IMG/VR virus record: IMGVR_UViG_3300031772_000004 | Location: 106,710-119,492 of that record | Origin: a virus | Lineage: Duplodnaviria; Heunggongvirae; Uroviricota; Caudoviricetes | Direction: 5' to 3' (one strand) | Length of the DNA: 12,783 nucleotides | Shown: piece after piece, positions 3,077 to 10,515 of the stretch | How the letters are laid out: every line of letters starts with the position of its first letter | How positions within the stretch are numbered: position 1 is the first letter of the stretch | Notes under the pieces: model-generated | Databases searched by the model: none | Told to the model about the DNA's origin: nothing | Seen by the model: only the letters and a program-made list of their open reading frames with translations | Translations under genes and position numbers: made by a program

Positions 3077-3748
3077 ATGAATGTTATTTCTCCCCCCAAT
3101 CGAAAATGTGAATATGGTTGTCTAATGGCAATAATTTCACCTAAAACCAGTAAAAATATTGTTAAATTTGGTAAAACCGCTATTCCTGACAAAAATTTGT
3201 ATATCGGGCCGCCTGAGGATGAATTAGGCAGAGACACAGAGCCACATGTTACTTTAAAGTTTGGATTTACTCCTGACTTAACCGAACCTCAGATTCTCAG
3301 CATAATCAAGGAATTAAATAAGCGTATAATCAAAGAATCGTTAAAAGAGATGGGTGGCAAATATGTTATCCGCGCAGGCGGTGGAAGTGGGACAAGAGAA
3401 CTTGAAGATGATGAGTTTAGAAGTAGTTTGCTATCAATGGAAGAAAATAAAAATAAGAAACCCACTTGGAAAATATATGCCGAAGGTATAACTATTTTTG
3501 ATAGCAAAAAAGAATATGATGTGGTAAAGTTTGATATAAAAAAAGACCCAATTCTTACTGAGATTCATTCTATATGTAATAGATACCCCAGCGTAAATAA
3601 GTATCCATCATATAACCCCCATATGACTATTGCTTATGTAAAAAAAGGTACTTTCCCACAAAGAGTATCACAAAAGAATATTCCCTTCAGCATTGCAAAC
3701 TTAAAATATTCTAGTATGGATGGTTCAAAACGCTACTACGATTTATAA
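3077..3748 (+). CDS. 2H phosphoesterase (2'-5' RNA ligase-like / T4 57B-Acb1-like) with an internal ~48-aa insertion
   Basis: Two HxT motifs, PHVTL (H57) and PHMTI (H182); N-terminal YGCLMA and C-terminal YNPHMTIAY resemble phage 2H proteins. Confidence 0.8.
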   Translation: MNVISPPNRKCEYGCLMAIISPKTSKNIVKFGKTAIPDKNLYIGPPEDELGRDTEPHVTLKFGFTPDLTEPQILSIIKELNKRIIKESLKEMGGKYVIRAGGGSGTRELEDDEFRSSLLSMEENKNKKPTWKIYAEGITIFDSKKEYDVVKFDIKKDPILTEIHSICNRYPSVNKYPSYNPHMTIAYVKKGTFPQRVSQKNIPFSIANLKYSSMDGSKRYYDL

Positions 3749-6200: not shown

Positions 6201-6452
6201 ATGACAAATATATTAAATAATACAGACAAGCCAAATGTTCGCGTTACTATAAATGATACCAGCGAAGTTATTTGTGAACAATGCAGTGGTAATACATTTA
6301 TAGAATCAGTTTTGCTGAGAAAGGTTAGCGCCTTACTTACAGGAGCAGAAAAAGATGCTTATATCCCAATACCTGTATTCTGTTGCGTTAAGTGTAATGG
6401 TGTGAATAGTGAATTCATTCCCCTTGAATTAAAAAACAAAATTGTAACCTAG
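6201..6452 (+). CDS. Small zinc-ribbon protein
   Basis: Two CxxC pairs (CEQC, CVKC) in 83 aa. Confidence 0.75.
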   Translation: MTNILNNTDKPNVRVTINDTSEVICEQCSGNTFIESVLLRKVSALLTGAEKDAYIPIPVFCCVKCNGVNSEFIPLELKNKIVT

Positions 6453-6527
6453 GGGTTGTAGCTTAATTGGTAAAGCACCACAATGGCATTGTGGGGAGTG
6501 AGGGTTCAAGTCCCTTCAACTCCACCA
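6452..6527 (+). tRNA. tRNA-Ala(GGC), 76 nt, CCA encoded
   Basis: Full cloverleaf: acceptor GGGGTTG/CAACTCC with the G3:U70 alanine determinant, D-arm GCTT/AAGC, anticodon stem CCACA/TGTGG with loop ATGGCAT (A32-U38 as in bacterial tRNA-Ala GGC), T-arm GAGGG-TTCAAGT-CCCTT, then A73 and CCA. Confidence 0.97.
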
Positions 6528-7220: not shown

Positions 7221-8003
7221 TTATGTTACGGAGCTAGTCATTCCAAATATTGCACTACCTGAGCAACTATAAAGATCTGTTGCCGTAATTGTAAATGAGA
7301 ATGAACCTGTTGCGGTTAATGCGCTAGATGTAATCAATCCCGTAGCTGCAAATAACGCCGAACCCGATGGCAATGTTCCCGCTGACTTTGTATATGTATA
7401 AGGAATGTGTCCACCAGAAGCGGTAATAGCAGCCCTATAAGCTGACCCACTAACACCATTTGTAACACTTCCATTATCAGTAAGAGTTATTGTTGGACAA
7501 ACGTAAGCAGCAACCAAAACCGTAAATGAACCAGTAGCGTTGCCACCATTGGAATCTAACACTCCAATCCTAAAGCTGGCCGTTTGTATCGTGGTTAATA
7601 CCCCAGAAATGATACCTGTTGTAACAAGTGAACCCGTTAAAGCAGTTCCAGATGGAAGTGAACCACTAACTAAAGTAAAAGTATACGGAGGAATTGGCCA
7701 ACCACCTGTAGCATCTATTGTCGCGGTATACGATGAACTTAAATTACTATTTGGAACTGTACCAGAAACAGATAGAGGATCTGCGGCAAATGCAGCATGA
7801 CCACCTGCGCCGGCGCCCGGCGCAGCATTACCACTTTGAACAGATGGTGCAGTCATTCCAGGAGGTTCACTTGCTTCACTTAACATTTGGACAAGAGTTT
7901 GATTAAATTCAAGTAAAAGTTGTTTATAACCCGTCATTATTCTATCCATCGGTAAATGTTTGTGGAGCCGATAATATGTTTGCCAATCTATTAAGTCGTT
8001 CAT
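7221..8003 (-). CDS. Putative Ig-domain (He_PIG-like) protein, two repeats; probably virion-associated or adhesion-related
   Basis: Two repeats of the pattern A.GG..PYT(F/Y)....G.LP.G...G.I; Thr/Ser/Gly-rich. Start reassigned to ATG 8003 (260 aa) because the longer ORF extension overlaps a promoter and structured RNA, and TATATTTAT lies 6 nt upstream of 8003. Confidence 0.75.
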   Translation of the reverse strand: MNDLIDWQTYYRLHKHLPMDRIMTGYKQLLLEFNQTLVQMLSEASEPPGMTAPSVQSGNAAPGAGAGGHAAFAADPLSVSGTVPNSNLSSSYTATIDATGGWPIPPYTFTLVSGSLPSGTALTGSLVTTGIISGVLTTIQTASFRIGVLDSNGGNATGSFTVLVAAYVCPTITLTDNGSVTNGVSGSAYRAAITASGGHIPYTYTKSAGTLPSGSALFAATGLITSSALTATGSFSFTITATDLYSCSGSAIFGMTSSVT

Positions 8004-8037
8004 ATATGTATAAATATAATCGTATTTACGATTTCGA

Positions 8038-8066
8038 TTGACAATTTTACAATTCTCATATATATT
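8038..8066 (+). promoter_or_regulatory. Sigma70-like promoter TTGACA-N17-TATATT driving the RNA cassette
   Basis: TTGACA 8038-8043, TATATT 8061-8066; no plus-strand ORF follows, only structured non-coding sequence. Confidence 0.7.
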
Positions 8067-8070
8067 ATAG

Positions 8071-8185
8071 ATGTTGCATGCAAAGAAAAGTGATGCACCT
8101 ACGGTCAAAGGGGTGTAGATGCTTGGCGGACAACCGCTTAAGGGTTCGGACGACTGCCACAGGGGTACAACTCCCAACTAGACCA
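8071..8185 (+). ncRNA. Unidentified ~115-nt structured RNA ending in ACCA
   Basis: GC-rich island after the promoter, with hairpins GCGG-ACAA-CCGC, GCAcCTAC/GTAGaTGC and GGG-GTACAACT-CCC (T-loop-like), ending ...GACCA before an AT-rich spacer. Boundaries are inferred. Confidence 0.45.
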
Positions 8186-8202
8186 TAATTTTTGTTCTTT
8201 AA

Positions 8203-8559
8203 AAATAAATATAGTCGATTGTTCGCGGCAACAATAGAAATGGCTTAAACCCTCTGGCGTTAAAGGAAAGCAACACGCCTTTTTACAGTTTTTTACCTAT
8301 ACGGTGGCTGCACACTACCTGTCAACAGGCACAAGTAAAAACGAAACTTAGTTGCGAGTTGGCGGCGAGGACGAACCAACCTATTGTTGCTGAGGAAATT
8401 CGCGTCTGCACAACCTAATGTGGCAGGATAATTCCGCTATGACCACAGAAGCAGCAATCTAAATTAGCTTAGTGTGTCGGTTGCACAATAATAGCTTGGT
8501 TAGAGCTCAGTCAAATGAACGATTAGAAACAAAAACGCGGTTATGAGCTATATTTATTT
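8203..8559 (+). ncRNA. rnpB: RNase P RNA, variant lacking most of the S-domain and carrying a 143-nt P3 insertion
   Basis: CR-I GAGGAAATTCGCGTCTGC (8392-8409) and CR-V ACAAAAACGCGGTTAT (8529-8544) align without gaps to E. coli GAGGAAAGUCCGGGCUCC and ACAGAACCCGGCUUAU, with compensatory changes in P4. Helices: P1 8203-8214/8548-8559 (12 perfect bp), P2 8217-8224/8517-8524, P3 8228-8237/8381-8390 (10 perfect bp), P4 8397-8405/8535-8542 with the bulged U, P5 8406-8409/8451-8454. J5/15 CAA and a CR-IV-like AGTCAAATG are present. Confidence 0.88.
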
Positions 8560-8564
8560 AATGT

Positions 8565-8648
8565 GCCCGTGTATCGTCGCCGTTTCCTAAACGGTAGAAA
8601 CGTAAATGGAAATTGAAAATGCAGGTTCGATTCCTGTCTCGGGCGCCA
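8565..8648 (+). tRNA. Atypical tRNA-Arg(CCU)-like RNA, 84 nt: no canonical D-arm, 25-nt extra region, CCA encoded
   Basis: Acceptor GCCCGTG/CTCGGGC (one T-T mismatch), G73, CCA; T-arm GCAGG-TTCGATT-CCTGT; anticodon arm GCCGT-TTCCTAA-ACGGT; only 7 nt (TATCGTC) between the acceptor and anticodon stems. Confidence 0.75.
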
Positions 8649-8664
8649 TTTTTTATCAATTGAT

Positions 8665-9528
8665 ATGATATTTATAATAGTGAAGTCATATACAATTGAT
8701 ACCATTTTAAAAGAAGTTTATTTAAATAAACCTGTAGACGAAGATCTCAACACAAAATTCTCTGATTTCACATCTTATTTGTCGGGTATGGCTAAAGGCG
8801 TCGTTGATAAACTGTTTTTCTTAAAATTCATCAAACCTGATATGCTTGTTGATTTTGGCTCAGCCGATGGATTTATCCTTAAACAAATTCACAAATATAA
8901 CCCAAACATAAATCTAATCGGATATGACATATCTCCCGATATGATTACAATAGCAAAAGAAAAGATTCCAGATATTCAATTTACAAATAATTGGTTAGAT
9001 GCAATTAAAGATGTCAAGCGTTATAAAAATTCCTGTTTATTACTATCATCTGTAATTCATGAAGTTTATTCCTATTCGACTTCTGAAGCCATCGAATATT
9101 TTTGGGAAAGTATATTTAATGCTGGTTTTGAATACATTGTCATCCGTGATACCATTCCATCAGAAAAAATTGAAAAGGTCATCAACTTCAAGAAGGATGT
9201 GGAGCAAGTCAAAAAAATTGTTGATCCAAAATTGTTAGATGATTATGAAAATAGTTGGGGACCAATTGATAAAAGTTATAAAAATTTCATTCGATTTGTA
9301 TTGATGTACAGATATAGAAATAATTGGTCGCGAGAAAGATTAGAAGATTATTTGTCATTAACATATGAATCAATGCTGCTTAAAATACTTCCAAAGTATA
9401 ATGACAGATACAAAATCATATACGATAAGAAATTTAAGTTTAAGCCAATCCAAACTTCTTTTGCAAAAGACTTTAATATACCATTACGACAAGATATTCA
9501 TTTGAAGATGATATTGCGACACAAATAA
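8665..9528 (+). CDS. Class I SAM-dependent methyltransferase (start may be GTG 8680)
   Basis: Motif I VDFGSADG, motif II GYDISPDMI, then LLLSSVIHEVYSY and IVIRD; substrate unknown. Confidence 0.8.
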   Translation: MIFIIVKSYTIDTILKEVYLNKPVDEDLNTKFSDFTSYLSGMAKGVVDKLFFLKFIKPDMLVDFGSADGFILKQIHKYNPNINLIGYDISPDMITIAKEKIPDIQFTNNWLDAIKDVKRYKNSCLLLSSVIHEVYSYSTSEAIEYFWESIFNAGFEYIVIRDTIPSEKIEKVINFKKDVEQVKKIVDPKLLDDYENSWGPIDKSYKNFIRFVLMYRYRNNWSRERLEDYLSLTYESMLLKILPKYNDRYKIIYDKKFKFKPIQTSFAKDFNIPLRQDIHLKMILRHK

Positions 9529-9623: not shown

Positions 9624-10515
9624 TACTGATTTGAGATGTTCCTGTTCTTTGATTTTCGTTTTAAGGGCGGTATAGCGTCCTGATACTTCCGCAAGGGAGT
9701 ATTTAAGATAAACTGCAGTAATGCAGCCAAAGGGGTGAGTCCCAAGACTCTCCCGCCATTCAACTGGCCACCGATACAAAAGCAAGCTCTGTAAGCTTAT
9801 TTGGAAACAAATGAGATACATCTGAAGCTGGTTAGCAAACGAATCCGGTATGTGACGAACAGAAAGGTTCTAACTGTCACCCGACAGTTCTTACTAATGC
9901 CCACGCGGCAACAGTTAAGGTTAAGAGTTCAAGCGAAGTCGTTTAGTTCGAGCCTCGCAAGCAAGAGCTTAATGATAGATTGATAGAAAGTGGGCTGGGT
10001 TACTCTATGCACACAATCTTGAAAATCGGATGAGTACTCGCAAGGGAAAGTCAGGTGGTGTGTTGCATTCTGTAGCTGTAACAGGTTATGGAACAACTAG
10101 CAACGCACATCACACTTGGGTTTGACATAGCTCGATAGAGCGCTAGTATATTAAACTAGAGGTATGGCTTAACCGCCGTTCTCAATAAAATGCAAAGTCG
10201 TTGCTTCCGATAACGGAAAAAGTCTTAATTCTCTGCCCGCAAGGGAACAGAGACACTTGATTCTCGCAAGGATGATGGTGTCAGTACGGAGATTGACGGA
10301 GGGTGTCGCAGCTCTTACTGCTCGCAAGTCAGACGTTGGTTGAAATGCTGAATATGTTATCGGTAAACTTGAATCGCCTCAAGTATAAAAAGGCAGACCT
10401 GTTAAATACCTGATACGTTCCCAGCGGACGGTCAAGGTGGATAAGTGTGAAGGTATCTCGCAAGGATACGATAATACTTCAAGGTTAACATTTTAAGCTG
10501 TAGTCTCAGGCTTGA
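9624..10515 (+). ncRNA. Giant structured ncRNA (~890 nt), GOLLD/ROOL-like; exact family unconfirmed
   Basis: No credible ORF over about 1 kb in a gene-dense genome; visibly GC-richer than the flanks; seven C-GCAA-G tetraloop motifs (9690, 9956, 10039, 10238, 10265, 10323, 10459); further hairpins; long-range pairing TGAGATACA 9812-9820 with TGTAGTCTCA 10499-10508; own promoter. Ends are approximate. Confidence 0.75.

Follow-up and report, generated by a model that had tools for sequence, protein, structure and literature searches.

RNase P RNA counts as an essential ribozyme of cells, and its possible occurrence in the genome of a large uncultured marine phage raises the question of what is encoded there and what use the phage would have for it. 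The question arises at positions 8203–8559 of a 12,783-nt window (the whole stretch of DNA analyzed here, positions 106,710 to 119,492 of the IMG/VR virus record IMGVR_UViG_3300031772_000004), where an earlier reading of the sequence, referred to here as the original prediction, had placed an RNase P RNA with an intact catalytic core and almost no specificity domain (S-domain). This plus-strand segment is a bacterial type A-like RNase P catalytic domain in which only a 41-nt stub of the S-domain remains and P18 is lacking. It belongs, as a genuine and intact copy, to a conserved phage family of miniature RNase P RNAs derived from type A, and it probably acts as a phage-encoded RNA that processes the precursors of phage tRNAs.

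The conserved regions CR-I and CR-V, read directly from the sequence, lie exactly where the original prediction had located them, and CR-I (GAGGAAAUUCGCG) begins at 8392. P1, P2, P3, P4 with its bulged U, and P5 all form, as had been proposed, and P4 can be read base by base. Its outer pairs, A8397-U8542, A8398-U8541 and U8399.G8540, are followed by the bulged U8400 and then by the inner pairs C8401-G8539, G8402-C8538, C8403-G8537, G8404-C8536 and U8405-A8535. P1 and the P3 stem are both contained in the minimum-free-energy fold. The two P5 strands are separated by exactly 41 nt (8410–8450), which contain the UGUGG/CCACA stem and small inner hairpin already described; the latter is GGA-UAAU-UCC, with 8426–8428 paired to 8433–8435. 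Missing from the earlier description were the P6 pseudoknot, the P15-P16-P17 arm with its GGU, and a 143-nt insert in P3 (Table 1). In the window sequence both P15 and P16 are present, and the alignment of the family resolved neither of them. Only 4 nt (8505–8508) occupy the position of P18, between the P15 3′ strand and CR-IV. The J5/15 adenines 8456–8457 correspond to the A248 region of the E. coli RNA.

Other members of the family were sought in IMG/VR with a generic pattern consisting of GAGGAAANTC, then 105–135 nt, then ACANAANNNNGNTTA. This matched 78 viral contigs, approximately the random expectation. All four unconstrained positions of P4 were complementary in 26 of the 78, compared to about 2% by chance, and every one of these 26 P4-filtered contigs carries, directly after CR-V, a P1 of 8–15 bp, these helices being of unrelated sequence. 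Two further spacing classes combined with the P4 filter gave 44 more matches with a fully complementary P4. The 22 most typical members could be aligned with the window copy over the entire length of the latter, and RNAalifold recovers P1, P3, P4, P5, the P7-like stem and P17. A covariance model, R1, built from the alignment of typical members and the window, gives the window copy 133 bits (E 3.3e-33), and its significant matches (27 + 55 + 3), of 156–272 nt, define about 85 members. Individual loci which carry family members, or were compared with them, are designated below by L-numbers.

Covariation in the family is extensive. Of the cells in the 27-member alignment, 97.6% pair, and compensatory double changes occur in 28 of 33 pairs, values reached by none of 500 shuffles, while sliding the 3′ partners drops pairing to 35–45%. 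Each of the 10 modelled pairs of P1 shows covariation within the family, and P4 is 99% paired with covariation in five of its eight pairs (26 distinct members). P2 and P6 are outside the covariance model and their pairs were counted separately: they are 98.3% and 96.4% paired, respectively, both with compensatory changes and with 0 of 500 shuffles as good. Homologues with covarying P4 and P2 helices, which the original prediction had made a touchstone, exist. P6 is found in the covarying versions UGCUUA/UGAGCA, AGAAUC/GAUUCU and CAACC/GGUUG. The alignment used for covariation had been fitted to the model and is thus biased towards this structure; a MAFFT alignment made before any model agrees with it. 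The search pattern itself accounts for part of the conservation of CR-I and CR-V, and its fixed bases cannot be counted as conservation. Evidence independent of the pattern is provided by the covariation of P1–P7 and P17, by invariant residues in J5/15 and CR-IV, by the tRNA context and by matches to Rfam.

The family is found almost exclusively on viral contigs. A family-specific pattern occurs in 19 viral contigs, compared to only seven contigs, all from metagenome-assembled genomes (MAGs), in 596 Gb of prokaryote genomes. The seven MAG contigs (L245–L251) are assigned to Gemmataceae, Planctomycetia, Opitutaceae, Alcaligenaceae and Flavobacteriales; these contigs probably derive from phages and were binned along with their hosts, and the taxa may hint at host ranges. 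Some members are ultra-minimal, at about 156–161 nt (L203 12438–12593, L198 8981–9136, L228 4233–4388, L190 9725–9880 and L204 7651–7811). In these, P5 is closed immediately above the 5′ strand of P6, and nothing of the S-domain stub is left.

Table 1. Elements of the miniature RNase P RNA and of its presumed transcription unit (window positions).
Feature	Position	Strand	Remarks
Sigma-70-like promoter	8038-8066	+	TTGACA-17 nt-TATATT; 11/12 consensus matches; best site in 7800-8800
Mini RNase P RNA gene	8203-8559	+	357 nt, P1 5′ strand to P1 3′ strand
P1	8203-8215 with 8547-8559	+	13 ungapped pairs, the last U.G
P2	8218-8225 with 8516-8523	+	8 pairs, closing G8225.U8516; read from sequence
P3 basal stem	8227-8237 with 8381-8391	+	11 pairs; in minimum-free-energy and centroid folds
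P3 insert	8238-8380	+	143 nt, predicted multi-branch fold
CR-I and P4 5′ strand	8392-8405	+	GAGGAAAUUCGCGU, bulged U8400
P5	8406-8409 with 8451-8454	+	In family: 100% paired, compensatory changes in 4/4 pairs
P6 pseudoknot	8411-8415 with 8479-8483	+	CAACC with GGUUG (P17 loop)
P7-like hairpin in place of S-domain	8419-8447	+	UGUGG/CCACA stem, 8419-8423 with 8443-8447
J5/15	8455-8457	+	CAA; A8456 and A8457 invariant across family alignment
P15-P16-P17 arm, whole	8458-8504	+	
P15	8458-8460 with 8502-8504	+	Read from sequence
P16	8466-8469 with 8493-8496	+	Read from sequence
P17	8472-8474 with 8484-8486	+	Covaries in family
L15	8497-8501	+	UGGUU, holding GGU; L15 G at least 90% conserved in family
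CR-IV	8509-8518	+	AGUCAAAUGA, runs into P2 3′ strand
CR-V and P4 3′ strand	8529-8543	+	ACAAAAACGCGGUUA
Atypical tRNA-Arg(CCU)-like RNA	8565-8648	+	Starts 5 nt after P1; encoded CCA
Run of six T	8649-8654	+	Follows tRNA-like RNA; terminator-like, stem 8625-8644; possible transcript end

Known RNase P models recognize the RNA only in part. At Rfam gathering thresholds there is no RNase P match in the window or in the whole record, and a record-wide search with RF00010 gave no match to the window copy. With cmscan in E-value mode, the full RNaseP_arch model (positions 1–288) aligns to 8344–8555 with 35.1 bits (E 3.1e-8); CR-I (GAGGAAAUUC), CR-IV and CR-V (ACAAAAACGCGGUUA) are matched and P7–P12 of the model are deleted. 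When all Rfam was scanned, RNaseP_arch, and not RNaseP-T, was the best model of the RNase P clan, for which only the best match is listed. The expectation that standard models would mis-score the RNA was thus borne out (35 bits, with a gathering score of 84). With RF00010, whose gathering score is 100, the divergent members L037 and L056 score 118.5 and 106.8 bits and so exceed the threshold, which ties the family directly to true RNase P; L050 reaches 53.5 bits with this model. BLAST against GenBank phages matched the window RNA only via the adjoining tRNA-like part and gave no match for L056 or L050. The view of this RNA as a minimal RNase P variant holds, since the catalytic core is kept, P7–P14 are gone and the RNA belongs to a covarying family confined almost entirely to viral contigs. 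Its viral origin is also upheld: the window forms the final 12.8 kb of an IMG/VR virus record of 119 kb (CheckV completeness 39%) whose proteins match phage protein families.

A role in tRNA maturation is suggested by the genomic context. Among the 73 members with a locatable core, 60 have same-strand tRNAs in the examined locus; a tRNA abuts the RNA in 37, and in 31 of these 37 it starts at most 45 nt after CR-V. In the window, the acceptor, anticodon and T arms of the abutting tRNA-like RNA are normal, but there are only 7 nt at the D-arm position, and a 25-nt region precedes the T-arm. The RNA scores 21 bits (E 0.23) with the tRNA-Sec model. The tRNA array of the 642-kb phage LR756502 includes a homologue which is 79% identical, with anticodon UCU and compensatory stem changes (L079 6001–6078). 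ARAGORN calls neither of the two RNAs, and at low threshold over 8000–8700 it returned noise only. The 8565–8648 RNA is the most likely candidate for a substrate in cis of the miniature RNase P. With a strong promoter-like site upstream and a T-run after the tRNA-like RNA, the arrangement suggests a single transcript of about 8073–8655, which would begin close to 8073 and span both RNAs. The leader (8072–8202) has no Rfam match and folds no better than shuffles (z = +0.8). Other structured RNAs are present in the tRNA arrays of carrier phages: a tmRNA accompanies the miniature RNase P RNA in several of them (L007 929–1353, L008 696–1063, L051 2543–2928 and L148 1926–2242) and another (L078 3688–3790, plus strand) includes a weak match to YrlA, a Y RNA-like RNA (40.7 bits, gathering score 69).

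The window RNA is most likely a working tRNA 5′-processing ribozyme. Transcription from the promoter-like site would yield it along with the atypical tRNA 5 nt past its 3′ end, and it would remove the 5′ leaders from phage tRNA precursors, here those of the 8565–8648 RNA and of a tRNA-Ala(GGC) at 6452–6527, which lies on the same strand as the RNase P gene, 1.7 kb upstream; further tRNA substrates are probably encoded in the missing 60% or so of the genome. Without an S-domain to read the tRNA elbow, substrates would be recognized via the acceptor stem and the cleavage site. Bacterial RnpA would assist, in this case most likely that of the host, and the phage would benefit from a tRNA 5′-maturation activity supplied alongside its own tRNA genes. 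A mechanism based on the catalytic domain alone is feasible because an E. coli RNase P RNA reduced to this domain cleaves pre-tRNA in vitro, although less efficiently (PMC5839562).

An active ribozyme of the RNase P type might nevertheless have been retargeted, with main substrates that could include the neighbouring tRNA without a D-arm, structures resembling tRNA, or RNAs of the host or of defence systems. The absence of the elbow-reading domain is compatible with this idea, as is the neighbouring RNA itself, which without a normal D-arm would have an abnormal elbow and which is conserved in another huge phage. There are also other structured RNAs in the window, including a GOLLD RNA (10053–10512), and non-tRNA substrates of RNase P are known (PMC11143913). 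However, the family RNA is found among ordinary cloverleaf tRNAs of all specificities, which argues for standard pre-tRNAs as the common substrate, and the sequence points to no other target. We consider retargeting to be quite unlikely.

How a tRNA-processing ribozyme would be provided with protein depends on the carrier. An RnpA gene (PF00825) is present neither in the 119 kb of the window record nor in ten other carrier records, four of which are complete genomes. The 642-kb phage LR756502 carries both a family member (L080, 614637–614845, minus strand, 131 bits) and an RnpA gene with an RNR motif (PF00825, 52 bits; L085 1435–1803, LR756502.1 approximately 525123–525491); it has no full-length RNase P RNA, as judged by the lack of an RF00010 match at E up to 0.01. 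LR756502 therefore seems to possess both RNase P subunits, in other words a complete phage-encoded holoenzyme. Most carrier phages, probably including the one studied here, would rely on host RnpA or on RNA-only catalysis. The original prediction had the RNA borrowing host RnpA, a plausible arrangement which fits these data even though LR756502 brings its own.

For the four complete carrier genomes without RnpA, the host protein would be the sole protein partner available, and this would also suit a non-catalytic mimic which sequesters or redirects host RnpA or another RNase P-binding factor and so damps host tRNA maturation or regulates phage tRNA processing. A poxvirus RNase P-like RNA has been discussed as a possible decoy (PMC3001073). 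A decoy would need protein-binding surfaces only, whereas the family has preserved the adenines of J5/15, the residues of CR-IV and the L15 GGU, together with the geometry of P4, including the bulged U, and the pseudoknot P6. In addition, the RnpA encoded by LR756502 suits a holoenzyme better than a sponge. A mimic is in our view very unlikely.

The feature which most distinguishes the window copy from its relatives is the insert in P3. R1 places the 5′ end of this copy at 8343. We rejected that placement: it leaves three of seven P2 pairs unpaired, whereas 8218–8225 pairs fully, and it is the sole source of unpaired P2 cells in the whole family. R1 misplaces the 5′ end because the model cannot span the insert. 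The true 5′ strands of P1 and P2 lie at 8203–8225, and P3 therefore encloses 143 nt (8238–8380) which are absent from the other aligned members, whose P3 hairpins are about 10–30 nt. The predicted fold of the insert is slightly more stable than that of shuffles (z = −2.3). The insert has no Rfam family match and no long open reading frame (ORF), and no copy was found elsewhere in the record or in the carrier loci examined. A second member, L148 (2740–3104, plus strand), also has a large P3 insert, of 142 nt at the same site; since its P1 begins at the base directly after a tRNA-Cys, its 5′ end is fixed independently. The L148 insert includes a 48-codon ORF preceded by a Shine-Dalgarno-like AAAGGAAAAG and folds with z = −3.67. 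Comparison of the two inserts revealed no sequence similarity.

It is conceivable, if unlikely, that these two P3 inserts are add-on modules which replace the lost S-domain in docking substrate or protein, or which confer a new target. If this were so, the window copy would represent a new architectural type of RNase P in which substrates are recognized from the opposite side of the catalytic core. The insert of the window copy offers a natural experiment on how a core tolerates or uses a large peripheral module. That the insertion instead inactivated a formerly functional miniature RNase P RNA, leaving a decaying or disabled copy, is highly improbable: such an insert occurs in only two of about 85 members, the window copy scores below most typical members with R1 and few tRNAs are nearby, but all helices and all conserved core positions are intact, the insert is at the tip of a peripheral helix with a perfect 11-pair stem, the promoter-like site and abutting tRNA are in place, and in L148, where P1 also abuts a tRNA, an insert of nearly equal length occupies this position.

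Several observations weigh against the interpretation of the window copy as an intact tRNA-processing RNase P RNA. The P3 insert could disturb folding or protein binding. The U.G wobble in P4 is found in only two of 26 members. The score with RNaseP_arch (RF00373) is far below the Rfam threshold. No close relative of the window copy was found by way of the neighbouring methyltransferase gene, of a sub-clade stub pattern in viral contigs or of two metagenome scans, which yielded only ordinary members of about 200 nt (L012, L050, L242 and L243). The 119 kb of the record hold only one standard and one atypical tRNA. Finally, CCA is encoded in only 48 of 299 tRNAs (16%) of the carrier loci, and in both tRNAs here; in view of this count, the matching of the L15 GGU, the motif to which the 3′ RCCA binds in type A RNA, to an encoded CCA was dropped as a general rule.

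In many respects the RNA resembles bacterial type A RNase P RNA (E. coli M1/rnpB; RF00010). Shared features are P1–P5, the bulged U of P4, CR-I, CR-IV and CR-V, the J5/15 adenines, the P6 pseudoknot to the P17 loop and the P15/P16 internal loop with its GGU; the closing G.U of P2 next to AAUGA is a further likeness to E. coli. In contrast to type A, the window copy has no P7–P14 (41 nt instead of well over 100), no CR-II or CR-III and no P18; it is phage-encoded next to tRNAs and has the additional 143 nt in P3. The original prediction had drawn a parallel with type T of Pyrobaculum and other Thermoproteaceae (RF02357; PMC3579882). As far as reduction is concerned this is justified, both being about 200 nt long and retaining the catalytic domain with most of the S-domain lost. 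It probably does not extend to kinship. Type T is archaeal and cellular, is the sole RNase P RNA of its organism and works with archaeal proteins, whereas the phage family has bacterial type A features. Because these include P6, P16/P17 and the GGU in L15, the two reductions look independent, that is, convergent.

Two other systems are comparable in part. Like the phage RNAs, the engineered E. coli CP RPR consists of the catalytic domain alone, and it cleaves pre-tRNA with reduced efficiency (PMC5839562); such constructs are laboratory truncations, whereas the phage RNAs are a natural, conserved gene family with a short P7-like stub. The camelpox or orthopoxvirus RNase P-like RNA is also virus-encoded and has a proposed resemblance to RNase P. 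It comes from a eukaryotic virus, its similarity is loose and it showed no cleavage of pre-tRNA in vitro (PMC3001073); the phage family has a full core and strong covariation. This inactive candidate was the only viral 'RNase P-like RNA' found in the literature. No description of a phage-encoded RNase P RNA, or of any functional viral one, was found in the full-text literature searched, whose coverage excludes subscription journals, and the paper publishing LR756502 makes no mention of RNase P. The family is thus apparently undescribed.

Should the proposed function be correct, tRNA 5′ maturation would join the translation-related functions carried by large phages. Dozens of natural minimal RNase P sequences would become available for exploring the limits of RNA catalysis and substrate choice, a question hitherto approached via engineered truncations and the type T RNA of Pyrobaculum. 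It would also raise the question of whether a viral ribozyme recruits host RnpA.

The surroundings of the gene include several other elements. At Rfam gathering thresholds the window contains only the tRNA-Ala(GGC) and the GOLLD RNA (RF02032; plus strand, 183 bits, gathering score 150), which is on the RNase P strand, 1.5 kb downstream. The GOLLD gene probably starts further upstream than 10053 because the Rfam model spans only its 3′ part. A minus-strand ORF at 7221–8177 (318 aa) has a C-terminal He_PIG Ig-like domain and a TTG start inside the promoter and leader region of the RNA. Its true start is probably the ATG at 8003 (MNDLIDW...), and this would leave 8004–8664 free of protein-coding sequence. 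Genes of the RNA-repair type lie within a few kb of the tRNA and RNase P genes: a phosphoesterase (phrog_547) at 2106–2756 on the minus strand and a 2′,5′ RNA ligase/LigT-like protein (PF13563, phrog_755) at 3077–3748 on the plus strand.

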